Notes: generated by a model from the letters alone, not told the origin. A stretch of 64,000 nt of DNA from Flavobacteriales bacterium (GCA_040377305.1 JBEIPA010000006.1:4177-68176), one strand, 5' to 3'; shown: positions 595 to 41,312, counted from the first letter of the stretch. Made by a program: numbers and translations.

Positions 595-3069
595 TTATTT
601 AGTAATGATGATTTCACGATTTGAAACGGATCCATCGGCAATAACACGCATGATGTAATTTCCGGCTGCAACATGTGCAACATCAACCGCAATTACATTT
701 CCTGCTTGTGTACCATTCAATGCAGAGCTATAAACAACTCGTCCCTGAAGGTCTGTGATTTCAATGAGCAGCTTTTCTGCTGAATTGCTCAGCGCGACGT
801 TGAACATTCCGTTGTTCGGGTTTGGATAAACTGAATAACCAAATGTTTCGTTCTCGGAAATTCCTACACAGGCATTCACATTCACAGTGAGAACAAATTG
901 TCCGCTGCAACCATTAGTGTCTGTGTGACTGAACGTCAGAATTTGTGGACCTGTTCCAACAGATGGATCGAATGAATTTCCTGTAACACCAGGGCCAGTC
1001 CATAATCCCGGAGCAGGAGAACCAGTAAGCGTTACGTTCGCGTCATCTAAACAAGGAGTCATTGAAGTTGCCATTCCTGTTACAACAGGATTTGGATTCA
1101 ACGTTACGTTTACCGTGTCATTTCCTACGCACCCGAACTGGTCGGTAACCGCTACTGAATAAACACCTGAAGTATTCACTGCTAACTGTGACTGTGTGCT
1201 GTTATCGCTCCACAAATAGGTAGCGCCAACAACTGTTGCGTCGAGAACAAGACTGCTTCCACATGCAACAGTGTCACTTAAAACAACCATTGGTGGAGCG
1301 TGTACGATCACAAAAATATTATTTGAACTATCGTCCATGCACACTCCGCTCGAAGCAATTGCAATGAACTGATAAGTGCCTGTGTCTGCTAATGAAGGCG
1401 CACCCAAATCAAATGGATTTCCGCTTCCGATCATTTGCCACGCCGTATCAGATGGAGCTAAGATCCACCAATCAATGTTACCGATGTCGCCAACAGAAAT
1501 CAGACTGGTAGAATCTCCCGGACAAATATCAATACCACCTGAGTTGGAAATAATTCCACCATTCGGTGGAACATCTACCGTGATTGCAGCTGTATCTGAA
1601 GCCGTGCAACCGTTTGCGTCAGTCACAACAACAGAATAAATTCCTGTCGCAGTTACACCCAGTGTGTTCTGCGTACTATTATCGTTCCAGAGATAAGTAG
1701 CCCCTGCGGTTTGTGCACTCAATACAATTCCACCACACACTGTTGTATCAGGTCCGATATTTACTGCTGGCGGAACATTCATGATCACTGTAGTTGTGGA
1801 AGAACTTGTACAACCATTCGCATCGGTTACAAGCAACGTGTATGTTGTTGTTCCTGCAGGAATATCAGTTACCGTGCTGCCCGACATACTTCCCGGCATC
1901 CAGTCGTAGGTGTAATTCATTGTGCCACCCATTGCCGTTCCGATAAGCGTTGCTGTACCGTTCGGACAAACGTCTCCGCTATTCGTTGCGCCCGCCACCA
2001 ATAAGGTTGGTTCAGTAATTGTTACTGTTTGCTGATTCGTACATCCGTTCGCATCTGTAATTGTACACGTATATGCACCGGCAGCAAGATTAGATTCAGT
2101 TGCAGCTGTTCCTCCGGTTGACCACAGGTAAGTGTACCCGGGAGTTCCGCCCGAAGGCATGACCATTGCATCTCCGTTAGTTCCGCCATTGCACAAAAGA
2201 TTGGTCTGCATGGTGCTTGCTGTAATGGCTGTAGGCTCCGTAATTGTTGCGAACGTTGTGTCCATACATCCCAATGCATCTGTTACAACTACAGAATATG
2301 ATCCTGCAGGAACACCCGTGATATCTTCTGTTGTTGCGCCATTACTCCACGCGAACGTGTAAGGTGAAGTTCCACTTGCTACGGTTTGATTGATTGAACC
2401 ATCATTCCCGCCATTACAAAGAGGAGCAGTGAAACTTGCCGTTGAAATCGGCGGAGCATTTCCAATGCGGATTTCATCCCACACGCCTACACCTGAAGTA
2501 AAATTGTAAAGGTGCACGCGGCTTACGTCGTTCTGAGTAGCACTGCGGAAAGGAAAGCTGGTGTACATCAGAACATTGTTAATGTAAATATCAAACGTGT
2601 GGTTTGTCCAGTTTATGTTTCGCAGTTCTACATTGTACCAGGTGTTCAGAGTCGCTGCATAATCAAACGTTGAAGAAGACACAAAACGAATCACTCCCGC
2701 AGCCTGATAATAGCAGAATACGATGCAATTGGTAGCAGAAACAGAAGCATTTCCGGCAACTACATAATTGTGCGAAGAGCCGGTTGTTTGCGGACACATC
2801 CACCAGCTTATGGTATTCGGAGTTGCTGGAGTGAAACTCGTAGACAATCCGGTAATGTGTGTAGAAACACCACCGGTACCTTCAATGCGGTATGTTCCTA
2901 CCGCAGGATTGGTTGTAGTAACAGCTGCGGATGTCAGTCCGGCACCGATACTCCAGGTTGGTGTGTAACTGCCGGATTCAAATCCATCGTAGAATGCACC
3001 GGCACACTGCGCATTCAGATTCATCGAACAAGCCACAGCAAACGCGGCTACGAGTAGAGATTTTTTCAT
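595..3069 (-). CDS. T9SS-secreted adhesin with SprB-type repeats and type-A C-terminal sorting domain
   Basis: ATG at 3069 gives MKKSLLVAAFAVACSMNLNAQ signal. The N-terminal ~220 aa domain carries FYDGFESGSYTPTWSIG. Repeated ~80 aa modules with CNGG..G and TDANGC motifs follow (SprB repeat). The C-terminus VYPNPNNGMFNVAL...ITDLQGRVV is typical of a Por secretion tail. Confidence 0.8.
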   Translation of the reverse strand: MKKSLLVAAFAVACSMNLNAQCAGAFYDGFESGSYTPTWSIGAGLTSAAVTTTNPAVGTYRIEGTGGVSTHITGLSTSFTPATPNTISWWMCPQTTGSSHNYVVAGNASVSATNCIVFCYYQAAGVIRFVSSSTFDYAATLNTWYNVELRNINWTNHTFDIYINNVLMYTSFPFRSATQNDVSRVHLYNFTSGVGVWDEIRIGNAPPISTASFTAPLCNGGNDGSINQTVASGTSPYTFAWSNGATTEDITGVPAGSYSVVVTDALGCMDTTFATITEPTAITASTMQTNLLCNGGTNGDAMVMPSGGTPGYTYLWSTGGTAATESNLAAGAYTCTITDANGCTNQQTVTITEPTLLVAGATNSGDVCPNGTATLIGTAMGGTMNYTYDWMPGSMSGSTVTDIPAGTTTYTLLVTDANGCTSSSTTTVIMNVPPAVNIGPDTTVCGGIVLSAQTAGATYLWNDNSTQNTLGVTATGIYSVVVTDANGCTASDTAAITVDVPPNGGIISNSGGIDICPGDSTSLISVGDIGNIDWWILAPSDTAWQMIGSGNPFDLGAPSLADTGTYQFIAIASSGVCMDDSSNNIFVIVHAPPMVVLSDTVACGSSLVLDATVVGATYLWSDNSTQSQLAVNTSGVYSVAVTDQFGCVGNDTVNVTLNPNPVVTGMATSMTPCLDDANVTLTGSPAPGLWTGPGVTGNSFDPSVGTGPQILTFSHTDTNGCSGQFVLTVNVNACVGISENETFGYSVYPNPNNGMFNVALSNSAEKLLIEITDLQGRVVYSSALNGTQAGNVIAVDVAHVAAGNYIMRVIADGSVSNREIIITK

Positions 3070-3100
3070 GTGTTCGTTCTTTCTTAACGGTTTGTTTATT

Positions 3101-5107
3101 CTAATGCTGCAATGCAATACGGTGAACTACGACACCACTTGTTGTTACAACACGTAACAGATATATTCCATTTGCTTCTGCAGACAAATCAATTTGTTTG
3201 CGGCTGCCTTCGTTGACTACCGGCTCTCTGGAAGTAAATACAATCCGGCCCTGAGCATCGGTAATTTCGATCACAGCATCCTTCGCTGTATTCGCGAAAG
3301 TGATTTCAAACAAGCCATTCGTTGGATTTGGGAAAACTGCTGTGCCTGCATCTGCGATTTCATTTGTGGTAAGACAAAGATCTACGTTAATCGTAACCGT
3401 ATCAATTCCGGAACAACCGAGTGAATCGGTGTACGTGTAAATCAGGTTGTGCATTCCTGCGCCTGCTGTATCCGGTTCGAATGTGCTTCCGAATACTCCG
3501 GCTCCGGTCCACGTTCCTCCGGCAGGAGATTCAAAGAGTTGCACTGTAGGTTCGCCGGTACACACAAAATTCATTGCGGCGCTTCCTACGACAACCGGAT
3601 TTGCATTGATCGTAACATTCACCGTGTCCATTCCTACGCAACCGTTCGCATCAGTCACAATAACGTAGTATGGACCGCTCAAGGTCACACTGATCATTTG
3701 CGTTGTAGAACCGTCATTCCATAAAAAAGTGTTTCCTGCATTCTGCGCATCGAGCATTGCACTTGCACATGATGAGAAATCGCTACCAAGTGTTACGACT
3801 GGAAGCGTATTCACTGTTACCGTTGTTGTTGAAGTGCTCGTGCAACCATTTGCATCGGTTACCAGTAAAGTATATGTGGTTGTCGTAGCCGGAACATCAC
3901 TCGTAGCACTACCCGACATATTCCCTGGCATCCAATTGTACGTGTAATTCATGGTGCCACCCATCGCAGTTCCTACAAGCATTGCAGTGTCGCCCGCACA
4001 AACGTTTCCGTTGTTCGCAGCAGCAGTCACCAATAATGTTGGTTCAGTAATAGTTACAGTTTGCTGATTCGTACATCCGTTTGCATCTGTAATTGTACAC
4101 GTGTAAGTGCCGGCAACAAGATTAGATTCAGTTGCAGCTGTTCCGCCGGAAGACCACAGGTAAGTATATCCGGGAGTTCCGCCGGAAGGCATCACCATTG
4201 CATCGCCGTTATTTCCGCCGTTACACAAAATATTTGTCTGCATGGTGCTTGCGGTAATGCCTGTGGGCTCCGTAACAACAACAGTTGTTGCATTCGTACA
4301 TCCATTCGCATCTGTCACCGTACACGTGTAAGTTCCCGCGGAAAGGCCCGATTCAACTGCATTAGTTCCTCCAGATGGAGCCCAGCTATATGTGTAAGGT
4401 GCAGTTCCAGTCGTAACTGTAACCGTCGCCGAGCCGTTAGAACTGCCGAAACACGAAGCACTTGCAGAAGTTGAGGTGGTAAGAAGAGGAACATTGCCGA
4501 TGGTGAAATCATCATACTCTGCAGTGGCAGCCACAAGACTGTTCAGGTAGATGCGGTCAACGGTGGTAGCTGTTGGAGAACGGAACGCCCAGCCCGACAA
4601 TATCAAGACATTGTTCAGATAAATGTCCATCGTACGTGAAGTCCAGTTCATATTTCTGCATTCAACATGATACCACGTATTTGCCGAGATCGGGTGATTG
4701 TATCCTGTGCTGTTATAGAAACGCAGCACGGATCCGCTATTGAAATAGCAAAACAGAATTCCATTGTCAGTAGGCGTGTTTGCATCACCGATGATTACAT
4801 AACCATTTGCACCGGTAGTTGTATTCGAACGCATCCACCACGACATGTATGCAGGCTGAGCTGGCGTGAACGTGGTATAAAGTCCCTGATAAAAACCGTT
4901 CGAGCCGGGACTTTCCATAGAAAGGTGGTAGTTACCAACCGGTGCGCTACCGGAAGGAACGCTGTTATTGTATATCCCGCTACCTATTGACCAGGTTGGC
5001 GTAAAACTGCCCGATTCAAATCCGTCGTAAAACTGGGTTGCGCACTGAGCTGAGCTAGCCGTAAAGAATCCAAATACAAATGCTACGCTAAGTAGAAGTT
5101 GCTTCAT
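3101..5107 (-). CDS. T9SS-secreted SprB-repeat adhesin, tandem paralog of the previous gene
   Basis: ATG at 5107 gives MKQLLLSVAFVFGFFTASSAQ signal. It has the same N-terminal FYDGFESGSFTPTWSIG domain, SprB repeats and a C-terminal VFPNPTNGLFEITF...ITDAQGRIV sorting domain. An internal ~150 aa segment is near-identical to the neighbouring gene. Confidence 0.8.
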   Translation of the reverse strand: MKQLLLSVAFVFGFFTASSAQCATQFYDGFESGSFTPTWSIGSGIYNNSVPSGSAPVGNYHLSMESPGSNGFYQGLYTTFTPAQPAYMSWWMRSNTTTGANGYVIIGDANTPTDNGILFCYFNSGSVLRFYNSTGYNHPISANTWYHVECRNMNWTSRTMDIYLNNVLILSGWAFRSPTATTVDRIYLNSLVAATAEYDDFTIGNVPLLTTSTSASASCFGSSNGSATVTVTTGTAPYTYSWAPSGGTNAVESGLSAGTYTCTVTDANGCTNATTVVVTEPTGITASTMQTNILCNGGNNGDAMVMPSGGTPGYTYLWSSGGTAATESNLVAGTYTCTITDANGCTNQQTVTITEPTLLVTAAANNGNVCAGDTAMLVGTAMGGTMNYTYNWMPGNMSGSATSDVPATTTTYTLLVTDANGCTSTSTTTVTVNTLPVVTLGSDFSSCASAMLDAQNAGNTFLWNDGSTTQMISVTLSGPYYVIVTDANGCVGMDTVNVTINANPVVVGSAAMNFVCTGEPTVQLFESPAGGTWTGAGVFGSTFEPDTAGAGMHNLIYTYTDSLGCSGIDTVTINVDLCLTTNEIADAGTAVFPNPTNGLFEITFANTAKDAVIEITDAQGRIVFTSREPVVNEGSRKQIDLSAEANGIYLLRVVTTSGVVVHRIALQH

Positions 5108-5226
5108 ATGATTGTAGTTATGAAAGTGAAAATGCCGATCAAATATAGTAAATTTAGGATGGCACTTCACCAATGAAATAGACTTCAACACAGCGACCGC
5201 CATTTCAATATTAAAAATACAAATGC

Positions 5227-9241: not shown

Positions 9242-10597
9242 TCACACAAACACCGCTGTCAACGAAGCAATGATGTCTGTCTGCTCTCCTCCGGCCAACG
9301 TCACCGATACAGTCGAACCTTTGAATGCAACGATGGTTTGTCCGCTCAGACCGGTTTGTGTAAACGGTTTTTGACTTGTTGCACCGGCCATACTGCCGAA
9401 TGGTCCATACTTGAGACCCGCTTGCGAGTGCAGCGTGATTTGTAAAACACAATTCGTTCCATACCACACACCGGTGTAACCGGTGACAGAAACGATGGGA
9501 TCAGTGGTTGGAATATTGATCGTCTGCGTTACTCCACTTGTTCCGCCGTGTTGCAATAAAGTGAATACACCGCTCGTCGTTCCCGGAGGCTGCGTACCGA
9601 AATTGTATGAGCCTGTTCCGGTGTTCACGCACTGAATGGCATTGAGTATATCGCCGGACTGAATGATCATTTGTGTTATTGGAGGATTACCCGCAACAGC
9701 AACAATTGCAGAGTCATCAAAATTATTTCCTGCAGGAGGATTCGCGAGCTGAGAAAGGATCATGATCTGTGCCTGCTCGAACTGAAAGTTGCCGGAGTTG
9801 AATCTCCATGTGAAGATGTCCAGGTAATTGAACCCCGAATTTACAGCGCTCCACACTTGCTGTGCGCTGGCGTTAGGAGCAGAATTGCCCGGCTCGAATT
9901 GTGCGCCATAACCAATAATAGCAGGCGCTATTCCGGCACTCAGATAGTCTGACAACTGACTTCCGTCGTAGAATTGCGGAGAGACGATATCGAAAGTGCT
10001 GTTAAGCGTGATTATTTGATTGGGCGAAGGAGCAAAAGCCGGCGCCATGGTCAGATACAATTTTTCTGATTGCGCATCAAATGCCGTGCGTATTGCGGTA
10101 AACAGAATTTGAAATTGTGAGTCCGTCATACCGGCCACATCACCTTCCCAGTCTACATCAATTCCGTTCATACCGTTTGCCTGCAAATAAGAAACGAGGT
10201 TGTTGGCAAATGCAGTGGCTTGCGTTTGCGGATCTCCACTGGAGAAAACAGCTGCCAGTGTCTGATTGCCTCCATAAATCATCGTCGCCAGAAACTTGAT
10301 GTTCGGATTCACCGCTCGCGCATCACGCAGCACATAATTCAGGTAATCCTGATTGCTCAGAAATTTAGTTGGCTTGGGTGCATCACCGAGGTGACAACCA
10401 TTTCCAATCTGTATGGTGAAACCACTTGCTGCGGGCACCACTTCAAAAAAAGCAATGCCGAGAAAATTGATGCTGTTGTAAACTTTGTACTGAATCAAAG
10501 ACTGAAAACAACTGTCGGGACTGTTGTAATTCGTTGTAGGTGGTTCATCTTCGTTGAGGAAGATCCAGGCGTTAACGCCGTAGGTGAGAGTGGTCAT
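9242..10597 (-). CDS. class III (hevamine-type) GH18 chitinase-like domain fused to C-terminal jacalin-like lectin domain; no signal peptide
   Basis: NGIDVDWEG matches the GH18 catalytic DxDxE. KLYLTMAPAFAPSPN and FDIVSPQFYD match the hevamine KVYLTAAPQCPFPD/FDYVWVQFYN blocks. The C-terminal GG.SG...VSVTGYTGVWYG...YGPFG matches the jacalin beta-prism signature. Confidence 0.7.
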   Translation of the reverse strand: MTTLTYGVNAWIFLNEDEPPTTNYNSPDSCFQSLIQYKVYNSINFLGIAFFEVVPAASGFTIQIGNGCHLGDAPKPTKFLSNQDYLNYVLRDARAVNPNIKFLATMIYGGNQTLAAVFSSGDPQTQATAFANNLVSYLQANGMNGIDVDWEGDVAGMTDSQFQILFTAIRTAFDAQSEKLYLTMAPAFAPSPNQIITLNSTFDIVSPQFYDGSQLSDYLSAGIAPAIIGYGAQFEPGNSAPNASAQQVWSAVNSGFNYLDIFTWRFNSGNFQFEQAQIMILSQLANPPAGNNFDDSAIVAVAGNPPITQMIIQSGDILNAIQCVNTGTGSYNFGTQPPGTTSGVFTLLQHGGTSGVTQTINIPTTDPIVSVTGYTGVWYGTNCVLQITLHSQAGLKYGPFGSMAGATSQKPFTQTGLSGQTIVAFKGSTVSVTLAGGEQTDIIASLTAVFV

Positions 10598-10772: not shown

Positions 10773-11744
10773 TCATTTTATAATTTTTAATTGCTTGCCA
10801 ATGTCCTTAGCCAATTTTGCTAACGGTCTTCTATTAATTTCTGAATCTAAACTGTAATTGCCTAAAACAAATCTGTCAATTAAGCTTGCTGATAATTTTA
10901 AATCAGCAAATTCTTTTTTCAATTCATCTCTTCTTGACTGGTTGTAATAGAGAGATTTCAAAACTAACTCTTCAACAACATCCGTATGTTTTTCATAAAT
11001 CTCCTCAATGCCAAATGTTGTTTTGTGTTCATTAAATCTAGGGTCAACTACATTTACTTTTGGTTTTAATAATTTGTAATCCCTATTCCCTATCAAGTAC
11101 TCAAGAGCATTGTTTTGGTCAATGTAAAAATCAAACTTGATGTTTGCATCCTCATGATAAGGATGTATATGTGTAAGCACTGTAAATGCCTTACTGCTTT
11201 TTGAAATGTTACAAGTTGAACACGATGGAATTAAATTACCAAGTGTAAGAGAAAGAAAAGGGAAAGTTGATTTATTGTAAAAATGGTCTAACTGAAAAAG
11301 CAATTTCTTTTTTGCTCCGTCTTTTCCAATTGCTAATGTAAATTGAGCATTGCAGTATAGACAAGCTTTGACTTCGAATCTTTCTGCAAACCAAGATGCT
11401 TTTGCACTTTTTCTATATGCAGAATATCCAAACGCAACTTCAATTTCTTTTCTGAAAACTGGGTCAGTCAGAGTGTTCATATATGCACCAGTTGTAAACT
11501 GTGTAATAAGATTTGGGATTTGATCTGGACTAGCTTTGATAATATCATCAAAGTTGTCAATCAAATCATTTATGAAATTTTGTTGGTTACCAATTTTAAG
11601 TAACGCTAATGCAGTAAGGTTATCTGTTGCTTTGTCAAAATAGTTTGTCCAAGCTGCTTTATGGTATGTCAAATATTCATTCGCAAAACTTGCAAACGAA
11701 ACCAACTTGCCACTGTTTTCAACTATCTTATCAATTATTCTCAT
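10773..11744 (-). CDS. HNH endonuclease (PtuB-like partner of the upstream ATPase)
   Basis: CLYCNAQF...LDHFYNKS...NLIPSCSTCN gives the HNH arrangement C-x2-C...H...N...C-x2-C. It overlaps the ATPase gene by 14 nt. The gene is AT-rich. Confidence 0.75.
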   Translation of the reverse strand: MRIIDKIVENSGKLVSFASFANEYLTYHKAAWTNYFDKATDNLTALALLKIGNQQNFINDLIDNFDDIIKASPDQIPNLITQFTTGAYMNTLTDPVFRKEIEVAFGYSAYRKSAKASWFAERFEVKACLYCNAQFTLAIGKDGAKKKLLFQLDHFYNKSTFPFLSLTLGNLIPSCSTCNISKSSKAFTVLTHIHPYHEDANIKFDFYIDQNNALEYLIGNRDYKLLKPKVNVVDPRFNEHKTTFGIEEIYEKHTDVVEELVLKSLYYNQSRRDELKKEFADLKLSASLIDRFVLGNYSLDSEINRRPLAKLAKDIGKQLKIIK

Positions 11745-13719
11745 TGCTGCCTCTTTGTTTTATTTCTCTGCTTGATGTAAGTTCCCTTTCAAGAAATGCA
11801 ATTCGTTCATCAATGTTTTCAATTCTCTGTTCAGGGAATTTCATGTAAAACAATTCCAACAACTGATTTAGAATAAGCGGTTCTCCAACTAAATCGATTA
11901 CACTTTTCAAATGCTGTGGATTCCTGGGGACTTCTCTCTTCAATTCACTAATAACTTCTTTGATGATTTCCTTTGCAAATTCACCCATTGCACCGCCTTT
12001 GTCTTTCAGAAAAAAAGCATCGGCATAAAGTGAATGAATATTTGCTCCAAACGTTTTTTGCATGTCTTTCAATTCCGAAACTTTGCAATCTCCTGTAATA
12101 TCATCCTTCTCTAAGAAAAGAATATTGTTCTTAGGCAAGTCAGAAACCAAAATTGGTGAATGACTTGAAATAAGTATCTGTAACTTTTTCTTGGGAAAAA
12201 GTTTCGGTAAATTTTCATTCAACAATTTTATAAACGAAATCTGCCACTGTGGATGGAGTGTTACTTCAGGTTCATCAAGTAGAAAAGCAAGCTCTGATTG
12301 ACTTGCTGGAATTGTATCTGCCGCTCTTTTAAGTCGACTGAACATTGAAAGTAAATTTTTTTCTCCGCTGCTTAAACCTACGTACTCAATTGAAAATATA
12401 TCAAAGATGAATGTTCGTCTATCTTCTCCATCTTCCAAAACAAAATCATCAAAATATATTTTAATGAACTCCTTTATTACATCTGGTTTTGAAAGAGGAA
12501 TTGTGAAATCATAATTTCCTTTATATTTTATGGAAGGAGATTCAATAATGAAATCAACTGCCTTTTTTATTTTAGAATAAAGTGAACTCCTAAATTTCCC
12601 TGTGAACTGGGCTTTCTTTAAAAAGTTTTCAAGTGTGGTTCTATGAATTCTTGTTTTGCTCGTAGACGAAAGGAATAATTCTATTGTAGAAAGGATTGCA
12701 TTTGATTTTCCTCTGTCGCCAAAATTCATTCTGTTCTTATACTCATATTTCAATGCCCCGTAAAGGAAACTCACATACAAGTTTGATTCTAATTCCTTCA
12801 ACCTGTCCTTTTCTCTTAGGTCTTTTTCTTTTATTGAAGTAATTACTTCTTCAATTCGTCCTTGCAATTCATTGTCGGCTTTCAAAAAACTATCAATGCT
12901 TTCCCAAAACCTTTGATAGAAATCATTCAAGCGAATGGTTACACCTTCAATGCGATTCTTGAAAGGCAGTTGTTCGAATATTTGATTCGAAAGAAATTCC
13001 AAATTTCGTTTCGACTCAGCTGATTTATGAGCCAACAATTCACTCTCTCCCGATATGTAATAACTGGTCTCACCAATATTTAGAGCATGATAATCATCTA
13101 CAATACAATTCTCCGTTGTATAATCGTAGTAATGCCAATAATCCGTCTCCCAGGTTCTTGAACTTCCAGCAACACCTTCAATGTTTGCAATCCTATCCAT
13201 GTTCAATAACGGACTGTAATGAATAATTGAAAGGTGGTTTAAATGACTGGTGGCAATCTGTCCTGTATAACTATCTTCAACTTCATGGGGTTTAAGTTTT
13301 CTCTGAAATTTATCTCTATTATAATTTACCAACTCAACATTTGGGACTTCCTTCAAATCAAAATATTTGATTTCAGAAATTGATTTGCCAAAATGAATTC
13401 CCTTGCGATTGAAAATGAATTTGTCAGTGATAATAAAACCGTCAAAATAATAACTCGGTTTTGTCATTATGTTTTGAATCAGGATTTCTAAAAGAGTTGA
13501 CTTGCCCGAACCATTCTCGCCAATGATTGCCTTTATGTCCTCAATCTGCTCATTAAAAAGTTTTGGGTTTCTTTTTTTTACGCATTCAAGTCTGCCTACA
13601 ATTTCTTTTGTTTTAGGGCTGTCCTTCTCTATTGTAAAACTGAATTCATAGAGAGAACTCAAATTGAATCCTATCTTTTTAATATGGTTGTATTTGTTTA
13701 CCCAGAGATATAAGAGCAT
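11731..13719 (-). CDS. AAA_15/AAA_21 ABC-type ATPase (PtuA-like, Septu-like defense ATPase)
   Basis: Walker A GENGSGKST, signature-like LSSGEKNLL, Walker B FLLDEPEVTLHP and H-loop ISSHSP. The N-terminal IKKIGF..S.YEFSF is typical of AAA_15. It is translationally coupled to the downstream HNH gene. Confidence 0.8.
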   Translation of the reverse strand: MLLYLWVNKYNHIKKIGFNLSSLYEFSFTIEKDSPKTKEIVGRLECVKKRNPKLFNEQIEDIKAIIGENGSGKSTLLEILIQNIMTKPSYYFDGFIITDKFIFNRKGIHFGKSISEIKYFDLKEVPNVELVNYNRDKFQRKLKPHEVEDSYTGQIATSHLNHLSIIHYSPLLNMDRIANIEGVAGSSRTWETDYWHYYDYTTENCIVDDYHALNIGETSYYISGESELLAHKSAESKRNLEFLSNQIFEQLPFKNRIEGVTIRLNDFYQRFWESIDSFLKADNELQGRIEEVITSIKEKDLREKDRLKELESNLYVSFLYGALKYEYKNRMNFGDRGKSNAILSTIELFLSSTSKTRIHRTTLENFLKKAQFTGKFRSSLYSKIKKAVDFIIESPSIKYKGNYDFTIPLSKPDVIKEFIKIYFDDFVLEDGEDRRTFIFDIFSIEYVGLSSGEKNLLSMFSRLKRAADTIPASQSELAFLLDEPEVTLHPQWQISFIKLLNENLPKLFPKKKLQILISSHSPILVSDLPKNNILFLEKDDITGDCKVSELKDMQKTFGANIHSLYADAFFLKDKGGAMGEFAKEIIKEVISELKREVPRNPQHLKSVIDLVGEPLILNQLLELFYMKFPEQRIENIDERIAFLERELTSSREIKQRGSNENN

Positions 13720-13914
13720 AAATGTTAAGTCTTAATAATTCTTGCCAAGATGTTTGTATCTATTACTATTGTTGTGTTCTCGTTATACGCTTGCTGGTAA
13801 CGTTTTCAGGCTTCGCGTTGGTGGGCTTTTGGAACACTAAAGTTTATTAATCGCTCAAATGTTGATACTCGCACTATACGCCCACTAACGCAAAACCCGT
13901 GTTAGCAGTTGTTA

Positions 13915-15051
13915 TTATACCAATTCTACATACGTCTTGTCATTCAAGTCTTTTCTAATTATATTCCAATGTGCAAGAACTTGAGGAACATACTCTTTAC
14001 CATTATTTATGGCTGCAAGATATTCTTCTTTATCAATAGCATTTCCTGTTATATATTTATAGGTTGTCTCAAGCACTATCGCTAGTTCTCCATAGATTGC
14101 TTTTGAAAATGATTCATACTGCTTTGGATAATATGCTTTTAAGTATTCATCAACGGTGGCAAGAATCATAGTTTGTCTCACCCTCGGATGAGGATGTGTT
14201 TGGACTTTAGAATCGATACTTCTGTAAATACTAGACTCGACCATTATGCGTGTAAGAGTCAGTACTGCTAACGACCAATTAAATATTGTTCTATCGAAGT
14301 CAACATAAAATTCCTTCCTATCCTCGGAAACACTTTGTTCCCCTAAATGTCTTTTTACTGCATTTACTAATCCTTTACAAACAGCTAAGCAATCGGCATC
14401 CATTTCTAAAGTTTGAATAGTTAAAATATCATCTTCGGAAATGGCTTTAATATTTCGCTCCTCATAAATATTCGTTCCAAAACGAGTCTTAATGAAATCA
14501 AGATGCCCATTAATTATATGAGTCAATTCGTGAGCTACTAGAAAATCGACAGACACATCAACCAAATGCCTAGCATACGCTTGCCTAATCTTATCATTTG
14601 GAATAGCCATTTGATAAGCATTGTAGTCAATATCGCCACATGTAACCAAAAGATTTGCGTCTAAATAGTAATTTCTTATTGTTGGACTATTTTTTGTTTC
14701 CAAAGAAGTGTCTCCAACTTCACCTAACACGAGAGGATTCGAAAGCATTCTGAAGAACAGGTCGTATAGTATTACTACAGCCCCCGCATTTATTCCAATA
14801 AAATAAAATCCATCATTTGTTTTCGCGGCAATAGCATTAAATTCTGGACTATCTATAAAGTCAAAATGAATATTAGGAGGGCTCTTTATTAAGCTCTCGT
14901 GATTTCTACAACTCTCAATATATTTAATTGCTCTGTTTCTATAGTACTCAAAAACAGCAAAACTATCTTTAGACAATTTCTCTGTCTTAAAAAGGCCACC
15001 TTTGTCTTTAAAAGTTTTATCAAACAATATCTTTTGATCGTTTTCGAACAT
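13915..15051 (-). CDS. HExxH zincin-like metallopeptidase-domain protein of unknown function
   Basis: VAHELTHIINGH (HExxH) with a downstream EMDAD acidic motif. The gene is AT-rich like the adjacent ATPase/HNH pair and is 195 bp upstream of it on the same strand. Confidence 0.5.
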   Translation of the reverse strand: MFENDQKILFDKTFKDKGGLFKTEKLSKDSFAVFEYYRNRAIKYIESCRNHESLIKSPPNIHFDFIDSPEFNAIAAKTNDGFYFIGINAGAVVILYDLFFRMLSNPLVLGEVGDTSLETKNSPTIRNYYLDANLLVTCGDIDYNAYQMAIPNDKIRQAYARHLVDVSVDFLVAHELTHIINGHLDFIKTRFGTNIYEERNIKAISEDDILTIQTLEMDADCLAVCKGLVNAVKRHLGEQSVSEDRKEFYVDFDRTIFNWSLAVLTLTRIMVESSIYRSIDSKVQTHPHPRVRQTMILATVDEYLKAYYPKQYESFSKAIYGELAIVLETTYKYITGNAIDKEEYLAAINNGKEYVPQVLAHWNIIRKDLNDKTYVELV

Positions 15052-15161
15052 TTCGATTGTTTACATTATAACTGCTAACTCTATAATTATTCTGTATTTA
15101 ATAGAACTATCCCCTGCTATCCCAAACATTGTTGGCACAGCATCGCGAGAACTATTTTTCC

Positions 15162-16880
15162 TCACCCCCACTCCCCCAACGTCACCACCAACCCCTTCGT
15201 TCCCACCGGCAGCGGATCGTATTTCGAAGGAACTTCCGGCTGACCTGTTGGTGCGGGTGGAATTGGTCCTGCGTTTTCGTCGTAAGCGAAACCGTAAGCT
15301 TGTCCCATGGTTGTGCCGCGTGCGCAGGTGGTGGAGTTGGATGCCTGGATGAAGATGGGAACGTTGTCGGTGCTCTTCTTCTTGGTTTTCGGATCGGTAG
15401 TCGTCACCGCAACTGTTGCTGTGTGCATGAAGAGTGAGAATAAATTCTGCACCGTTTTTTCCGGATACCAATTGGTTTGTGTGCCCCAGTATTTCGAAGT
15501 GTAGCCCGCCGTTCCTGATGTGGGTGCGGAGTTCGCTACACCACGGTTCAACGCACTCACCAATTGGTTCTGAATGTTCAGCGCTACCGACTGCTGATCG
15601 GCATTCAATCCCGGTGCAAATGCAAACACGCCTGCATTGCCGAATGCCATAGCGCCACTCGTCAGGAACATGCCCGGCACTTTGGAAAATCCGAACTGGG
15701 CGTTGGGTGTTGTTCCGCTCAGTGTACTTCCTTCGAGCACAACAGATGTAATTCCTGCTGCTGTTGTGTTGATGGATTTAATCACGGTGTTATTCGGATC
15801 AACTCCTGCGCCGGTGACGTACATGCCCGTGAGCAGATTTGTAGCTGCCGGCAGCGGAGTGGTGAATGTCAGCGTTGCATTGCTGAGCACTCCGGTGATT
15901 GCAACAGGACCCGAACTTCCGGCGTACGACATGGTGCATAATCCGATCGGATTGAAAACAGTAAACACCTGCTTGTTGCTTGCTCCGGTGAACTGCAATG
16001 CAGCATGAGAAAGTTTTGTGTTGCCCGGAATCGGTTGTGCAGCAGTTGATGTTACCGTGTAGATGTCGGGCGTAATTGTTTTTCCACCGCCAACACCTTG
16101 TATGCTGAGTTTATTATTGGAGAACAACGTGGTGAGATCCGCATCAAACCATCCGTTCAGTTTGCTGTCGAGATGAAGCAACTGGTTGGTTGTATCGATG
16201 GAACTCAGGTAAAGTCCGGGATTGAGCAGTCCGCCGTAGTTCGTTGAATACTGCATATCCAGAAACGGTGCTGCACTTGCTCCGAGTGCGTTAATGAATG
16301 GTGCATACGCGCTGATGATCGATGCGCGCGTGACAGCTGCATTGCCAAGCGGTTGTCCTACGGCACCACCCTGATTGAGTGTGATCGTCACCGGCAAAGT
16401 GAATCCATCTACAGTTTGCACGTCAATCACTGGTCCGTAACCTGGATCTACGATTGTGAATTCGCAAAAAGAATACGGTGGTACTGCTGAGTTGGGTGGA
16501 TTCTGCACATTGGTTACGTTGGCGCCTTGTCCGCTGTAAGCGATTTGTGGTCCGGACGAAAACTTCGAATTATCTGCGATGAAAAAATAAATGCGTGCAC
16601 CGTCGATCTTAGCTGCGTCGGTAAACGGAGCAGGAATGTCGATCTGCACTTCGAGAATTTCATCATTGAGTTTGTACACCGGCAGTGTTCCGCTCGCTGC
16701 AGTAACAGGAGTGAATGTGGCAGTTTTGGGTTTGATTTTGCTTTTGCGGTTGGCGCTTATCGACAACATCTTTTGCGACTTCGTAGTAAACCCGAGGACG
16801 TAGATGGTGTATTTATCGGAAGGCAATTTCGTTCCGTCGTTCAACGCAATGGTGAGCGTTGTTCCTTGTGCAGCAGTCAT
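15162..16880 (-). CDS. GH64-family beta-1,3-glucanase-like (GH64-TLP superfamily) protein, no signal peptide
   Basis: N-terminal TLTIALNDG...YTIYVLGF, RIYFFIAD and C-terminal GQAYGFAYDE parallel the LPHase blocks TLPLTITNNSG..IWIY, RIYFSYG and KAYGFAFDD. Translation starts directly at the mature-like sequence. Confidence 0.55.
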   Translation of the reverse strand: MTAAQGTTLTIALNDGTKLPSDKYTIYVLGFTTKSQKMLSISANRKSKIKPKTATFTPVTAASGTLPVYKLNDEILEVQIDIPAPFTDAAKIDGARIYFFIADNSKFSSGPQIAYSGQGANVTNVQNPPNSAVPPYSFCEFTIVDPGYGPVIDVQTVDGFTLPVTITLNQGGAVGQPLGNAAVTRASIISAYAPFINALGASAAPFLDMQYSTNYGGLLNPGLYLSSIDTTNQLLHLDSKLNGWFDADLTTLFSNNKLSIQGVGGGKTITPDIYTVTSTAAQPIPGNTKLSHAALQFTGASNKQVFTVFNPIGLCTMSYAGSSGPVAITGVLSNATLTFTTPLPAATNLLTGMYVTGAGVDPNNTVIKSINTTAAGITSVVLEGSTLSGTTPNAQFGFSKVPGMFLTSGAMAFGNAGVFAFAPGLNADQQSVALNIQNQLVSALNRGVANSAPTSGTAGYTSKYWGTQTNWYPEKTVQNLFSLFMHTATVAVTTTDPKTKKKSTDNVPIFIQASNSTTCARGTTMGQAYGFAYDENAGPIPPAPTGQPEVPSKYDPLPVGTKGLVVTLGEWG

Positions 16881-36526: not shown

Positions 36527-38386
36527 TCAAAACACAATTTTTACATCTTCTTTATAATTCTGCAGTGTTCCATTCAAACTTGCTGTCCATCCGTCAATAA
36601 ATACTTTGCCATTTTTAAGGGCATTTGAATAATCGTCACTGGCAATTTTCTCACTGTTGGTTATGTAATAATGATGGCCGATTTTGTAAATGCAATCCTT
36701 AACCACTTCTTCAGGAACTTGAGTTGGTTCGTCTAAACCAACGGTGAATACCATATTGTAAATACGACTTAAAGCATCAGTTTCGTTTTCAGTTATTGAG
36801 ATTTGCCCTTGATCATCCACTTTTAATTTTGGTGCTTCCACGCTATCAAAAACCTTGAAGCCAATATCAGGAACTTGTTTTTTATCCTCATCAAACAATC
36901 CTGCTTTACTGTTTTCCTCTTCAATGTGTTGAGCAATCTTTTCACCTGCACGTTTCAAACGTTCAATTGTTATACTTGAAATAACCGGTGATAAATTATT
37001 TGCTACACAAAAGTCATAAGAATCTTTGTTTTTGACTGGATTAATAGGTTCATCTATTTGACACAAAATAAACTTCCGGTTACCACCATCTTCGGCATTA
37101 ACCTGTATAACTGCATGGCCTGTTGATCCTGAACCCGCAAAGAAGTCAAGAATTATTCCGTCTTTACCGCTCATTTGTATTATTTGCTCAATCAACTCAA
37201 CTGATTTAGGAGTTTCAAAAACAACTACGCCATCAAACAATTCTTTAATTTTGTTCTTTGCAGTCTCTGTAGTGCCTACGTCTTCTGCGAATAATATAGA
37301 TTCAGGAGTCAAACCTCTTTCTTTTGCTTCTAAGTAGGTCTTAACTCTTGGCACTCCATTCCCATCCTTACCGAACCAAATTCTTTTATCCTTAATTGCT
37401 TCATCCATCACATTTTCTGTATAAAGCCAGCACCTACCGCTTTCAAGTTTATGTATTTTCCCATTCGGCGCTTTTAGGTCATAGAATTGCGATTTAGTTC
37501 CATGGCCAGCTTGAGCAGTTGCAGGGTCTGACTTCCAAAGCCCTCTTGGATCATTGTCAGGATTCTTATAGTTGGACAATGCCTTTTCACTCATTGGAGT
37601 TTGGCTAATAGACCGGACACCTTCAATCTGGTTTTTTGAATAACATAAGATGTAGTCATGCCTGTTTGAAACAACTTTTCTATTTTCCCTGTTTGTTCTT
37701 TTCTCCCAAATAAAAGTGGCAATAAAATTCTCCTCACCGAAAATATCATCACAAAGTAATTTCAGATTAGCTTGTTCGTTATCATCGATGCTAATAAAAA
37801 TAACACCATCTTTTCTTAATAAGTCTTTAGATAATAAAAGGCGCGGATACATAAACGCTAACCAACCGTTGTGGCTCTTTTTAGTTCTAAAGCTAAAATC
37901 CATTCGAGCAAAATCACTTTCATCCAAGTTAGCCATGCCCAAAACTTCCGCTTCTTCTTTGTCAAACTTATCAGGATAAACAAATTCGTCGCTTTCAGTA
38001 TTGTATGGTGGATCTATATAAATGCACTTCACTTGTCCGCTGTAATAATTTTTTAGAATCTTTAAGCTATCCAAATTGTCACCCTTCAGCACCAAATTTT
38101 TTGTTGTTTCAATACTCTTGCTCAATGTGGGATTTAGGTGGAGTTCTTTATCAGTTTTTTGGTCATATTTAGCTCTGGCAAAGTTTCTTCCGACAAAATT
38201 TAATCCGTAACCGTTTACTTTTTCATCAATTGGTAAACCCAATGCGGCCTTTAGTTCCTCTATATTTAGTTCGGTGTCGCGTATTACATTAGGGAAGTTC
38301 TCTTTCAGAAAACTCAACAATATGTTTTCGCGGGCTTCTGTTCCAACAACTGTAAATCCTGCTTTTATAAAATCTTGTTCTGCCAT
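36527..38386 (-). CDS. mod: Type III restriction-modification system methyltransferase (Mod), N6-adenine
   Basis: IYIDPPYNTESD (DPPY motif IV) and FFAGSGSTGHAV (motif I). Immediately upstream of a Res gene. Confidence 0.9.
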   Translation of the reverse strand: MAEQDFIKAGFTVVGTEARENILLSFLKENFPNVIRDTELNIEELKAALGLPIDEKVNGYGLNFVGRNFARAKYDQKTDKELHLNPTLSKSIETTKNLVLKGDNLDSLKILKNYYSGQVKCIYIDPPYNTESDEFVYPDKFDKEEAEVLGMANLDESDFARMDFSFRTKKSHNGWLAFMYPRLLLSKDLLRKDGVIFISIDDNEQANLKLLCDDIFGEENFIATFIWEKRTNRENRKVVSNRHDYILCYSKNQIEGVRSISQTPMSEKALSNYKNPDNDPRGLWKSDPATAQAGHGTKSQFYDLKAPNGKIHKLESGRCWLYTENVMDEAIKDKRIWFGKDGNGVPRVKTYLEAKERGLTPESILFAEDVGTTETAKNKIKELFDGVVVFETPKSVELIEQIIQMSGKDGIILDFFAGSGSTGHAVIQVNAEDGGNRKFILCQIDEPINPVKNKDSYDFCVANNLSPVISSITIERLKRAGEKIAQHIEEENSKAGLFDEDKKQVPDIGFKVFDSVEAPKLKVDDQGQISITENETDALSRIYNMVFTVGLDEPTQVPEEVVKDCIYKIGHHYYITNSEKIASDDYSNALKNGKVFIDGWTASLNGTLQNYKEDVKIVF

Positions 38387-38390
38387 TGTT

Positions 38391-41312
38391 TTATGCGTTG
38401 TTTATCAAAGCCGCTAATTGCGTTTTGTTGATACGTTCTTTGTATGATATTTTTATATTTTGTCCTTTGTAGTGTTCGCCCAATGCCTCAAAATATTTTT
38501 TTGCAAAATCGATTTTCTCTTTTTCATCTACGGGTATTGCGGTCGACGATTTGTAGCCTTTAGCTTCTACTACAAGAAATATTTTGTTTCCTCCTGAGCT
38601 TTTGACTGCATAGCAAAAGTCCGGGTTGTAATCGCCCAAAGGCGTTTTTATTTTTAGGCGCGGAAGTTTGCCAAAAATTTCAATACTGTCAACATCAGGG
38701 TCTTGCTCCACAATTTCCAATTCAAAATCGCTGTCGTATTCAATCACATCTTCAAATATCCATTTGTTTTTCAAAGAAAAATCACCTGCAATGTCTTTTT
38801 GAAATTTGCCAACGCTTCCTGTGTCCAAGTATGTTCTTCCATTTTCGTTCTTAAATACGTTTGGCAGACCGGTTCCGTTAATCCCGTCGTACTTGATATT
38901 CGCCTTGAGTATTGCAATTAAGTTCTTATTGATTATTTGTGTAATTTCTCTTTGGGCTTGTTCAGGATTGTTGCACAGCATCTTATTCTTGAAATCATCA
39001 CTCAGAGCATTGAATACCTTTACAACAAATGAAATAGGTGTTTTGGTCTTGTTTGCTAAAGTGTGAACCAATTCTAGATAATTAATTTTGCTTTTGTAAG
39101 AAGCTGTCTCCGTTAGTCTTTCTGTTATCGCACCTTGTTCACCAATCTTGTTCACGTTTAGTTCAGCACGAATGGTCTGCAACAGAATTTCTTCAATGTT
39201 TACGGCTTCTATCTGCACTTTTATGTTTTGTATCAATTGTTTTTCTTGTGAATCACTTAAAGTTTCTAGCACATAAAAAGCATTTTTGTTGATAGCGTTC
39301 CATAGGTTTTGAAACTCTTCCAGGTGGGTTGCTTTAATAAAAACCTTCTTTTTGGGTTTAATTTTTTTAGCATCCTGAATGTATTTGTTTGCATCAGTTG
39401 CAAACAAGCTTTCAATCGCTTTAACTTGCTCTTCGGGCAAATTTTGTTCCTTCAGTATTGCAGTGAACTCGGGTGACTTTTCATAAATCTTTTGTCCGTC
39501 AACAATTGCCTTTCTAACAATCATTTTCTTCTCCTTCAACACATCATCAACTAACGTAATGATTGTATCATCATCGAAGCCCGATTTTTCTTTAAGGGTT
39601 TTAATCAGTTCTTGCTCTGTAAATGTTTCGGAAATTAAGAATGAATTACTTAATATTTCGTTTTGAATAGCTTCAACAAAACCTTGTTCCTTACTTGAGA
39701 CAACCACATCGAGGTTGTTGATTTTCCAAAAAGCCTCTTGGTCGTCATTCAGGTTTTTAAGTGTATATCGTTGCAAATTTTGATTCACACAAATGCGTAA
39801 TCCTCTTCCAATTTGTTGAAGCTTCGATATTTCACTTCCTTGATTGGATAGTTTACATATTGTAAACACATTCGGATTATCCCAACCTTCCTGCAAAGCC
39901 CAAATAGAGAAAATGAAACGTGTGGGACTTTCAAACGAAAGCAACTTCTTTTTGTCTTTTAGAATTTCATCAACCCCTGCTTTGACTTTTTCGTCAGCAT
40001 TTCCCTTGTCACCGGAAAAATAACCTTTGTGCACTTGCAAAGAGTTGTCACTGTCAAAATCGTTTTGCAGGTATTTTTTATACTCACATGTTTGATCAAG
40101 TTTGCTTACAAGTGCGGAGTATTGCTTTTTGTATTCTTCTTCAAATATGTTTTTTACTTTTGGTTTTTCGCCACGAAACAAACTGGTGTCTGCTTCCATA
40201 AAAAACAAGGTGAGTGCTTTTACGCCTTGCTCAAACAGTGATTTTTCCTTCTCAAAATGTATTTTTATTGTTTCTCTGATCATTGCCCGCAATGACTCGT
40301 CAGATAAAGAATAATCAACCTTTTCTATGGTGTCGTCCGCTAGAACAATGGTGTCTTTGTTTATTTTTTTAATGCTTTTGCCGTTGAATATTGCACCAAT
40401 CCCAGATACTCGCGGCACTACAATTCCGTTGGTTAGAGTGTTTACGTACGCCATATATTTTGAGCTAACCTTTTCTATGCCAACTAGCGTATCTGTGTTT
40501 TCAACTACGTCCTGAGTGTAAACCACGATTTTCTTTACCAGGTTTTGTCGGAAAGAAGAAATGCTGTCCAATACATACGCCACGTTTGATAATGGCAAAC
40601 TGTCTTTCTTCTTTGGAAATGTAGCTCCAAAACGCAAATAGTAATTGTCAAACCCTTCAAAATAGGTTTTAAAGGCATTGCCTTCAAAACGGTGAGGTTC
40701 GTCCATTATCACAATCGGTTTTAAGCGTTTCAAACATTCTAAATACGATTTTGGCGTATCCTGATTATTTACAAATAGTTCTGGTGCGTTCATTTCTCTT
40801 TCCAACGGACGATTCAGAATGTTGTCTTTGCTATTAAATGAACTTGGTGTCATCACCAATACCGATAAATGCGAAGCGCCAATAAATTGTTTAACCGCGG
40901 AAAGGTTTCCGCCTTCGTAAACGAATGCTTCAATTTCCTTTTCTCTTTCGTTAGCGTAAAAACTCTTAAAATAATTTTTGGTATCCTCTAGATTTGTTTT
41001 TGTACCCTCGCGAATTGGAACGGTAGGAATAAGAATGATAAACTTCTTGTAGCCAAAGTTTTTACTCAGCTCAAAAATGGATTTTATAAACGTGAACGTT
41101 TTTCCCGTTCCCGTTTCCATCATTATGTCAACGTTTTTGTTGTCCTGAACTGGAAAATTGTATTTGTTCCTTTTATGGTGGGCCGTCAGCACATCATCAA
41201 AATTTTGTTTTTGGCGAAGGCTTTCAAAAAGACTGATAATGCTATTTACGCAGTCTTCCTGATAGGTTTGTATTTCGTATTGAAACTGTTTTGCTTCTGT
41301 TCTTGTCGTCAT
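38391..41312 (-). CDS. res: Type III restriction endonuclease Res subunit (SF2 helicase + PD-(D/E)xK nuclease)
   Basis: METGTGKT Walker A and VIMDEPHRF (DEPH box). The C-terminal DFCYAV...VVEAKGY is nuclease-like. 973 aa. Confidence 0.9.
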   Translation of the reverse strand: MTTRTEAKQFQYEIQTYQEDCVNSIISLFESLRQKQNFDDVLTAHHKRNKYNFPVQDNKNVDIMMETGTGKTFTFIKSIFELSKNFGYKKFIILIPTVPIREGTKTNLEDTKNYFKSFYANEREKEIEAFVYEGGNLSAVKQFIGASHLSVLVMTPSSFNSKDNILNRPLEREMNAPELFVNNQDTPKSYLECLKRLKPIVIMDEPHRFEGNAFKTYFEGFDNYYLRFGATFPKKKDSLPLSNVAYVLDSISSFRQNLVKKIVVYTQDVVENTDTLVGIEKVSSKYMAYVNTLTNGIVVPRVSGIGAIFNGKSIKKINKDTIVLADDTIEKVDYSLSDESLRAMIRETIKIHFEKEKSLFEQGVKALTLFFMEADTSLFRGEKPKVKNIFEEEYKKQYSALVSKLDQTCEYKKYLQNDFDSDNSLQVHKGYFSGDKGNADEKVKAGVDEILKDKKKLLSFESPTRFIFSIWALQEGWDNPNVFTICKLSNQGSEISKLQQIGRGLRICVNQNLQRYTLKNLNDDQEAFWKINNLDVVVSSKEQGFVEAIQNEILSNSFLISETFTEQELIKTLKEKSGFDDDTIITLVDDVLKEKKMIVRKAIVDGQKIYEKSPEFTAILKEQNLPEEQVKAIESLFATDANKYIQDAKKIKPKKKVFIKATHLEEFQNLWNAINKNAFYVLETLSDSQEKQLIQNIKVQIEAVNIEEILLQTIRAELNVNKIGEQGAITERLTETASYKSKINYLELVHTLANKTKTPISFVVKVFNALSDDFKNKMLCNNPEQAQREITQIINKNLIAILKANIKYDGINGTGLPNVFKNENGRTYLDTGSVGKFQKDIAGDFSLKNKWIFEDVIEYDSDFELEIVEQDPDVDSIEIFGKLPRLKIKTPLGDYNPDFCYAVKSSGGNKIFLVVEAKGYKSSTAIPVDEKEKIDFAKKYFEALGEHYKGQNIKISYKERINKTQLAALINNA

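Follow-up and report, generated by a model that had tools for sequence, protein, structure and literature searches.

The ~4.3-kb AT-rich insert that lies between two glycoside-hydrolase genes of this Bacteroidota chromosome is probably a miniature defence islet built of two independent modules, a PDC-M62 ATPase-nuclease pair and a single-gene, Lit-like protease. Within the window (the whole 64-kb stretch of DNA analysed), the block at 10773-15051 consists of three minus-strand genes (Table 1) whose coordinates, 14-nt overlap (ATPase and HNH genes) and 195-bp gap (zincin and ATPase genes) are exactly those of the original prediction. The AT-richness that it described was likewise borne out. The block has a GC content of 33-34% (0.317, 0.336 and 0.338 for the HNH, ATPase and HExxH genes, respectively) between hydrolase genes of ~50% GC (GH18/jacalin gene at 9242-10597, 0.48; GH64 gene at 15162-16880, 0.51), and GC3 is 0.25-0.31 across the three genes as against 0.49-0.54 in the flanks. 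No tRNA was found within the window, the island edges lack convincing direct repeats, and a scan of the island for sigma-70 promoters, whose consensus does not cover Bacteroidota promoters, and for terminators gave nothing better than shuffled sequence.

Table 1. Features of the AT-rich insert (window coordinates).
Feature	Position	Strand	Remarks
HNH (beta-beta-alpha-Me) nuclease partner, PDC-M62B / PtuB-like	10773..11744	-	323 aa
ABC/OLD-type (AAA_15/AAA_21) ATPase, PDC-M62A / PtuA-like	11731..13719	-	662 aa
Two-gene cassette	10773..13743	-	Limits set by DNA homology to pair-only loci
Spacer between modules, part of neither cassette	13744..13914	.	171 bp; 41.5% GC
Inverted repeat, downstream arm, bracketing zincin gene (GTTAGCAGTT...)	13901..13924	.	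Pair I5
Stand-alone cytoplasmic gluzincin, distant Lit (Peptidase_U49)-like protease	13915..15051	-	378 aa
Zincin upstream region, presumed own promoter region	15052..15161	-	AT-rich, 34.5% GC
Inverted repeat, upstream arm, 5-28 nt upstream of zincin start codon	15056..15079	.	Pair I5

By its profile matches, the ATPase-HNH pair belongs to the unpublished PADLOC candidate family PDC-M62, a Septu-like clade. The ATPase matches PDC-M62A over residues 2-652 (E 1.8e-74) and the HNH protein matches PDC-M62B over residues 46-321 (profile positions 37-325 of 328, E 4.2e-59); both matches are full length, or nearly so, and in adjacent genes, and we see no structural difference from that family. The HNH protein was at first taken as unusual for its extended N terminus and long C-terminal tail, but both are simply normal for full-length members of PDC-M62B. 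The ATPase carries the predicted Walker A (GENGSGKS at 67), signature (LSSGE at 449), Walker B (FLLDEPE at 479) and H-loop (SHS at 519) motifs, all invariant in 27 homologs, and its Pfam matches are AAA_21 (1.3e-16) and AAA_15 (4.2e-13). In the nuclease, the core C128xxC131N...D153H154...N170...C175xxC178N179 and a C-terminal RPLxKLxxDI motif are invariant in nine partners, although the protein scores 18.9 bits against Pfam HNH, under the 21.4-bit gathering score.

That the pair is a Septu-like, defence-type one was correctly foreseen: after PDC-M62A/B its best library matches are PtuA and PtuB, and its homologs lie in defence islands. It shares with Septu the two-gene layout (ATPase first, overlapping HNH gene downstream), the ABC/AAA_15-21 ATPase motifs and the CxxC/DH/N/CxxCN nuclease core, and its best solved relatives are PtuA (2.5e-14, followed by AriA at 1e-12 and OLD at 6e-10, all through C-terminal motifs only) and, as the sole relative of the HNH protein, the PtuB-type chain 9n69_F (TIGR02646, E 2.3e-6). 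Conservation of the C-terminal part of the nuclease also agrees with the PtuA-PtuB interface reported in PMC12819146. On the other hand, the matches to the PADLOC PtuA model (1.5e-19, partial) and PtuB models (1e-9, more exactly 1.2e-9, core only) are far behind those to PDC-M62. Similarity of the ATPase to PtuA is limited to ~90 C-terminal residues (E 1e-11 to 1e-14), hardly above that to AriA, and the proteins are larger (662 + 323 aa vs 465-550 + ~220-250 aa). The curated NCBIfam models NF041760 and NF041761, the retron Ec78 equivalogs of PtuA and PtuB, are missed roughly tenfold (47.8 bits vs 500 and 16.4 bits vs 150). A retron-linked PtuAB, the type I-A version of Septu, was rejected because the block has no retron RT and, with no ncRNA in the island by Rfam, no retron ncRNA. 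A RecF/RecN/Rad50-type repair ATPase was also rejected, given the matches to PDC-M62A and then PtuA and the defence-island homologs. In Bacillus cereus, PDC-M62 calls are largely the same as the Septu calls of DefenseFinder, with 203 PDC-M62 loci shared (PMC11811056).

The pair recurs as two overlapping genes in 10 other loci (within L010-L014, L102-L104 and L107-L110), the close contexts among them having come from exact-protein look-ups, as a scan of genome contigs with the ATPase gave distant relatives only among the matches listed. Some homologs lie within type I restriction-modification (R-M) operons, between hsdS and hsdM (65% and 73% identity), or have McrBC, KAP NTPase or Mrr genes nearby, while the pair here and those in L102 and L110 are without hsd genes. 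At the DNA level the cassette is sharply bounded. Homology to L102 (Sphingobacterium sp.) runs at 83% identity from window position 13743 to 10773, starting ~24 nt before the ATPase start codon and finishing at the HNH stop codon, and the matches to L107 (78%), L103 (73%) and L110 (73%) end within 25 nt of the same points. Copies within hsd operons and copies elsewhere have the same boundaries, an indication that the module is autonomous and mobile. It is therefore improbable that the pair is an R-M accessory, a PrrC-like back-up of hsd operons of which this would be an orphan copy. Such a role would suit the hsdS-hsdM insertions and the top NCBIfam match of the ATPase, TIGR04435 ('restriction system-associated AAA family ATPase', E 8.7e-23), but that match reaches 80.8 bits, far under the 300-bit cutoff, and the window has no R-M system closer to the pair than a type III one ~21 kb away. 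Sequence comparison thus identifies a PDC-M62/Septu-like cassette that moves between Bacteroidota contexts, type I R-M operons included.

The third gene encodes, as predicted, an HExxH zincin without an attached HTH domain; its HELTH (at 174) and EMDAD (at 216) motifs are invariant in 38 homologs, and the block has no HTH ORF. Its structure model is a confident gluzincin, with real similarity to the M48-type fold. Searches with this one sequence were uninformative: Pfam, PADLOC, PHROGs and PDB sequence searches gave nothing usable, a Foldseek search of the model against the PDB returned only noise (GPCRs, PPAR), Pfam U49 (PF10463) gave no hit at E <= 0.01, and the PADLOC Lit model, against which E. 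coli Lit itself scores 8.5e-124, was not matched. The NCBIfam Lit model gave E 0.079 for the window protein (NF007238, 12.1 bits vs 274). Across the family, however, Lit is the best-scoring named family: its NCBIfam model matches 15 of 38 members (best 7.1e-6), as against two of 38 for BepA. Comparison by hhalign of the family with Lit gave a probability of 75% (E 2.5e-5), rising with deeper profiles to 89.9% (E 1.7e-6) over 193 columns; family profiles were required, the match to the single E. coli Lit sequence being weak (12.7%). Moreover, the invariant columns of the two families align one to one: H174/E175/H178/H183/E216/A219/D220/H286/P287/R292 coincide with H160/E161/H164/H169/E181/A184/D185/H232/P233/R238 of Lit, covering the HExxH-x4-H, E-x-[DE]-A-D and HP-x4-R motifs. 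These alignments make the zincin family a remote homolog of Lit, the phage-exclusion protease of E. coli.

Like Lit (the e14 cell-death peptidase, Peptidase_U49, PF10463), a stand-alone cytoplasmic HExxH zinc protease on prophages and mobile DNA, the zincin family has members in prophage cargo slots. It differs from Lit in length (378 aa vs 297 aa, with ~55 extra N-terminal and ~80 extra C-terminal helical residues), in scoring too low for the Lit models of Pfam, NCBIfam and PADLOC, and in its distribution, which takes in Bacteroidota, Planctomycetota and soil metagenomes instead of enterobacteria, apart from enterobacterial P2 prophages and phages. Regulatory proteases of the ImmA/IrrE/CapP (M78) group are also HExxH zincins tied to defence or mobile elements, and these and DUF4157 had been put forward for checking. 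Neither identity was retained, as Pfam and PADLOC profiles for both gave no signal and no HTH partner is present in the block; Lit is the nearest named family.

The zincin family is large (4,607 clusters, nearly all of ~370 aa; ~4,600 at 50% identity) and has no conserved neighbour, with at most three of 123 neighbouring ORFs sharing any one Pfam family. Copies stand by themselves in the P2 portal/gpA cargo slot, lie beside the integrase gene in a temperate Microcystis phage, occur on 28 IMG/VR viral contigs, and adjoin a GmrSD-type enzyme or Dcm/Vsr, and others accompany SoFic, AbiEii and DRT genes. A blastn search of E. coli genomes with the P2-hotspot homolog found nothing, and the only plasmid matches were two distant Rhizobium copies. 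Many homologs, such as those in L001 and L003, sit among ordinary metabolic genes, so the zincin could have a non-defence role, as a housekeeping or stress M48-like gluzincin that merely lies beside a defence cassette. We consider this unlikely, though it is the alternative to be taken most seriously. The phage and defence contexts just listed and the preference for Lit over BepA among family members argue against it, as does the window copy itself, a cluster singleton in a low-GC insert with 42 word-sharing homologs among 5.8 billion sequences. Furthermore, M48/M13 gluzincins (HtpX, Ste24, BepA, neprilysin, PepO) are membrane, periplasmic or secreted proteins with other domains, whereas the zincin is a compact, soluble single domain without a signal peptide or TM segment; Pfam M48 (PF01435) did not match it and only weakly matched four of the 38 members.

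The original prediction read the three genes as a three-component Septu variant, acquired as a unit, in which the ATPase-HNH pair would have the zincin as its regulator, sensor or effector. In the loci compared, the two modules are not linked. None of ~119 loci with a zincin homolog contained the pair (of the first 88 of these, 45 had a flank of 2 kb or more to one side), and close homologs of the pair (65-83% aa identity), seen in five independent contexts, were in every case without the zincin. A census of HExxH-gene neighbourhoods thus found no conserved linkage to AAA_15+HNH pairs, the very outcome named beforehand as counting against the three-component reading. The locus itself argues in the same direction. 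First, the DNA homology of the cassette ends ~24 nt upstream of the ATPase start, and the two modules are separated by a 195-bp gap, as opposed to the 14-nt overlap inside the pair. Second, the 171-bp spacer (13744-13914) differs in GC from both modules, so acquisition as a unit is not supported; it has no DNA homology by blastn to pair-only or zincin-only loci and no Rfam match, and contains a hairpin (CTAACACGGGTTTTGCGTTAG, 13905-13885, minus strand) without a T-run. Third, the zincin gene has its own bracketing inverted repeat, whose arms are complementary at 18 of 24 positions (outer 10 nt exact), a degree equalled in just 1/2000 and 5/2000 shuffles, and whose core motif also flanks the zincin homolog in L001/L002. 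The region upstream of the zincin gene resembles the island in its GC content. As a conserved system, the three-component reading is on these comparisons already refuted, and the block is to be read as a Septu-like pair beside an unrelated, stand-alone protease gene; that the protease and the pair cooperate in this particular genome is very improbable.

For the two modules of the proposed islet we infer anti-phage roles, along with the triggers, substrates and protease latency sketched here. Module 1 (10773-13743) would be a self-contained cassette working in analogy to PtuAB (PMC12819146): the ABC-type ATPase would oligomerize and hold the HNH nuclease via conserved C-terminal helices of both proteins, keeping it silent while ATP is bound, until a phage cue or ATP depletion leads the ATPase to license the nuclease to cut nucleic acid. 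The outcome might be DNA nicking or tRNA loss, as in some Septu and retron PtuAB systems, stopping phage replication. Since the curated PtuA/PtuB cutoffs are missed and AriA is almost as close to the ATPase as PtuA is, this mechanism may not transfer. Module 2 (13915-15051 plus its own upstream region) would be a one-gene system in which a cytoplasmic zinc protease with HExxH and ExxxD motifs lies latent. By analogy with Lit, which cleaves EF-Tu in a phage-peptide-dependent manner (PMC3014915), a phage late protein may activate the protease, which would then cleave an essential host factor, EF-Tu being the precedent, and bring about abortive infection. More tentatively, the ~370-aa HExxH/ExxxD/HPxxxxR proteins as a whole could be a large clade of single-gene, Lit-like proteases for abortive infection, missed by Pfam, PADLOC and NCBIfam thresholds, whose extra helices might sense triggers beyond T4 Gol and whose substrates might differ from EF-Tu.

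Because it is absent as a conserved system, a three-component Septu should not seed a new system definition. The PDC-M62 cassette described here is instead a good candidate for validating that candidate family. To our knowledge, Lit has stood as an isolated enterobacterial case since the 1990s. The zincin sequences appear to define a sizeable Lit-related protease family overlooked by current defence annotation, and a broad sister family of Lit would allow the generality and triggers of protease-mediated translation shut-off against phage to be tested.

The three minus-strand ORFs of the block and their coordinates (Table) match the original prediction exactly, and together they form a sharp low-GC island (GC 0.32–0.34, GC3 0.25–0.31) against flanking genes, encoding a GH18+jacalin protein and a GH64 beta-1,3-glucanase-like protein, whose GC is 0.48 and 0.51 (GC3 0.49–0.54). 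T9SS sorting domains are present in other parts of the window and are indicative of Bacteroidota. The ATPase gene shares 14 nt with the HNH gene, and lies 195 bp from the gene for the HExxH protein, a zincin. All of the named motifs were found and are invariant among homologues: in the ATPase, Walker A GENGSGKS, LSSGE, FLLDEPE and the SHS H-loop; in the HNH protein, C128xxC131N, D153-H154, N170 and C175xxC178N179; and in the zincin, HELTH and EMDAD.

Genes of the block, loci of ATPase–HNH pair homologues (L-numbers) and other features of the window
Feature	Coordinates	Strand	Description
HNH protein	10773-11744	minus	ORF, 323 aa
ATPase	11731-13719	minus	ORF, 662 aa
HExxH protein (zincin)	13915-15051	minus	ORF, 378 aa
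L102			Sphingobacterium sp.; pair adjoins a 1,893-aa NTPase-like protein and an Mrr-type nuclease
L103/L104, L107-L109	10001-12965 (L103/L104; L107)		Pair between hsdS and hsdM in type I R-M operons
L110			Pair among hypothetical genes
Second low-GC insert	36527-41312	minus	36% GC
Paralogous ORFs	595-5203	minus	Adjacent, 840 and 700 aa, 51% identical

The original prediction joined the zincin to the ATPase–HNH pair as third component of a Septu variant. We gathered zincin loci by exact-protein look-up (8) and from metagenomes (80), and added two for a 60%-identical homologue, one phage record and 28 IMG/VR contigs. Searches with the A2 profile for the ATPase, and with phmmer or the A5 profile for HNH, found no relative of the pair at any locus in this whole set, in the first 88 of which flanks of at least 2 kb were available on one side in 45 and on both sides in 23. 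At one viral locus (L132), the opposite strand encodes a distant ABC-type ATPase, and no HNH gene accompanies it. Nor did a recurrent zincin partner emerge when the neighbours of the zincin at 38 non-redundant loci, 123 ORFs in all, were scanned; the most frequent Pfam family occurred at most three times.

Seen from the pair, the result was the same. Close homologues (65–83% amino acid identity) always keep the overlapping HNH partner in five independent contexts, and in all five the zincin is absent beside them; the pair is likewise kept in five distant loci (L010–L014). A KAP NTPase, SLFN/AlbA or McrBC lies near the pair in the type I R-M loci (L103/L104, L107–L109). The homologues in hsd operons (65–73% amino acid identity) occupy a precise site of insertion between hsdS and hsdM, a placement that we liken to that of prrC in the EcoprrI locus. 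Because the census revealed no conserved zincin–pair co-occurrence from either side, its outcome is the one that the original prediction had itself named as speaking against a three-component system. The zincin is no part of the ATPase–HNH system, and the three-gene ‘system’ is a juxtaposition.

The two modules have low GC in common, a spacer of differing composition between them, and boundaries of their own. DNA homology to pair-only loci (73–83% identity) starts at 13743–13719, at most 24 nt before the ATPase start codon, and ends at the HNH stop (10773–10768), while the zincin gene has separate DNA homology (65% identity, 15029–13900) to zincin-only loci. The 171-bp spacer (13744–13914) has 41.5% GC, as against 33–34% in the modules on either side, includes a hairpin (CTAACACGGGTTTTGCGTTAG) without a T-run, and may be what is left of other sequence that lay between two cassettes inserted separately. 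An imperfect inverted repeat (arms 13901–13924 and 15056–15079) brackets the zincin gene alone; 18 of its 24 positions are complementary, the outer 10 nt exactly so, a level reached by 1–5 of 2,000 shuffles. Its core, GT[TC]AGCAGT, also flanks the zincin homologue in L001/L002, and could represent cassette ends, 5′/3′ UTR pairing or a regulatory site. In L001, where the homologue is 54% identical and comes from another Bacteroidota genome, the motif lies ~28 nt upstream of 10001 and, inverted, just after 11137, directly past the stop; in L105 (60% identical) it was seen upstream only, ~85 nt before 2757.

On sequence grounds, we regard the pair as a new member of a known candidate family, PDC-M62, an unpublished PADLOC candidate. 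The PDC-M62A and PDC-M62B models match the ATPase (E = 1.8e-74) and HNH protein (4.2e-59) over essentially their full lengths, while the PADLOC PtuA and PtuB models match core motifs only (1.5e-19 and 1.2e-9), and the pair scores far below every cutoff of the curated NCBIfam PtuA/PtuB equivalogs and TIGR04435. Among solved structures, the ATPase profile matched retron Ec78 PtuA best (2.5e-14), then AriA (1e-12), stand-alone Septu PtuA (8ee4, 3.1e-11) and OLD nuclease (6e-10), every match spanning only ~90 C-terminal residues; the HNH profile matched a single chain, a TIGR02646 (PtuB-type) protein (2.3e-6). In a Bacillus cereus survey, PDC-M62 calls were largely the same as DefenseFinder Septu calls (PMC11811056). 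From these results we file the pair in PDC-M62, a Septu-like clade; its predicted Septu-like character held. A RecF/RecN-type repair ATPase was rejected as the identity of the ATPase in favour of this family. The HNH protein is indeed large, with N- and C-terminal extensions, but these are not unusual as had been supposed, since such termini are normal for PDC-M62B; an RPLxKLxxDI motif is conserved at its C-terminus.

The zincin alone had no match in Pfam, PADLOC or PDB, and in NCBIfam only a faint one (E = 0.079), to the phage exclusion protein Lit. Forty-two homologues share words with it, some with a precomputed weak match to PF10463 (Peptidase_U49), and an exhaustive profile search returned 4,607 clusters at E ≤ 0.001 (1,047 at E ≤ 1e-30), nearly all of 360–390 aa with a single full-length match. 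Of 38 family members, 15 match the NCBIfam Lit model (best 7.1e-6) and two the BepA model. Aligned by hhalign with a 31-sequence Lit alignment, the family gave 75% probability (E = 2.5e-5), rising with deeper profiles (177 versus 74 sequences) to 89.9% (E = 1.7e-6) over 193 columns (query 60–297, Lit 35–243). Conserved residues H174/E175/H178 align with Lit H160/E161/H164, H183 with H169, E216, A219 and D220 with E181, A184 and D185, and H286-P287...R292 with H232-P233...R238. E216-x-x-x-D220 forms an ExxxD motif, which in thermolysin-type gluzincins provides the zinc with its third ligand and includes the His-orienting Asp. Compared with Lit, the zincin is longer by ~55 N-terminal and ~80 C-terminal helical residues, and no signal peptide or TM segment was found in it. 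We class it as a Lit-type protease that forms a variant of its own, with a homologous catalytic core and a different size. The family escapes current models: PADLOC's Lit model, which scores E. coli Lit at 8.5e-124, misses it (best E-value 0.011). A further PADLOC model of 378 positions, PDLC03011 ‘peptidase_U41’, is matched by the catalytic core of E. coli Lit (1.5e-10) and not by the window zincin at E ≤ 1.

Two enterobacterial family members are the sole occupants of the interval that separates the portal gene from replication gene A in P2-like prophages; this position corresponds to the tin/old cargo slot, known as an anti-phage gene hotspot. A homologue adjoins the integrase of a temperate Microcystis phage, and a structural search of BFVD matched one protein, that of an uncultured myovirus (E = 2.8e-11). 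Other copies adjoin a GmrSD-type restriction enzyme or, within a mobile element, Dcm/Vsr; some neighbours match SoFic, AbiEii, DRT or AriA-like models, and many copies have ordinary metabolic genes as neighbours. Small same-strand ORFs without Pfam match follow the homologue in L105 (3949–4146) and L106 (1297–1494), both 65 aa, and in L001 (11304–11777) and L002 (2194–2589), at 157 or 132 aa; visual reading of the window spacer revealed no equivalent.

Motifs, fold and family links are matters of observation; what we infer are triggers, substrates and an anti-phage phenotype. Modelled on PtuAB (PMC12819146), an ATPase oligomer would sequester the HNH nuclease, held off by bound ATP until a phage cue or ATP depletion released its activity on DNA or, indirectly, tRNA. 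The zincin may be a latent zinc protease that a phage late protein switches on, whereupon it would cut an essential host factor and abort infection, much as Lit, once the T4 Gol peptide is bound to EF-Tu, cleaves that protein at Gly59-Ile60 (PMC3014915).

The second low-GC insert in the window probably encodes a type III R-M system. PADLOC MTase_III (3.9e-149) and REase_III (4.6e-122) matches fall somewhere in the window, and were given to its adjacent 619-aa and 973-aa ORFs by size, adjacency and composition rather than from a per-ORF table; the 619-aa ORF has DPPY at 125 and FxGxG at 416. SprB repeats occur in two window ORFs in all, among them the 840-aa paralogue, which also bears a T9SS C-terminal sorting domain; the paralogous ORFs have no relation to the three-gene block.

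The block is an ordinary mini defence islet, and its ATPase–HNH pair neatly exemplifies a Septu-like cassette which elsewhere inserts into type I R-M operons. As a by-product, the analysis brings out a large unannotated Lit-like family.
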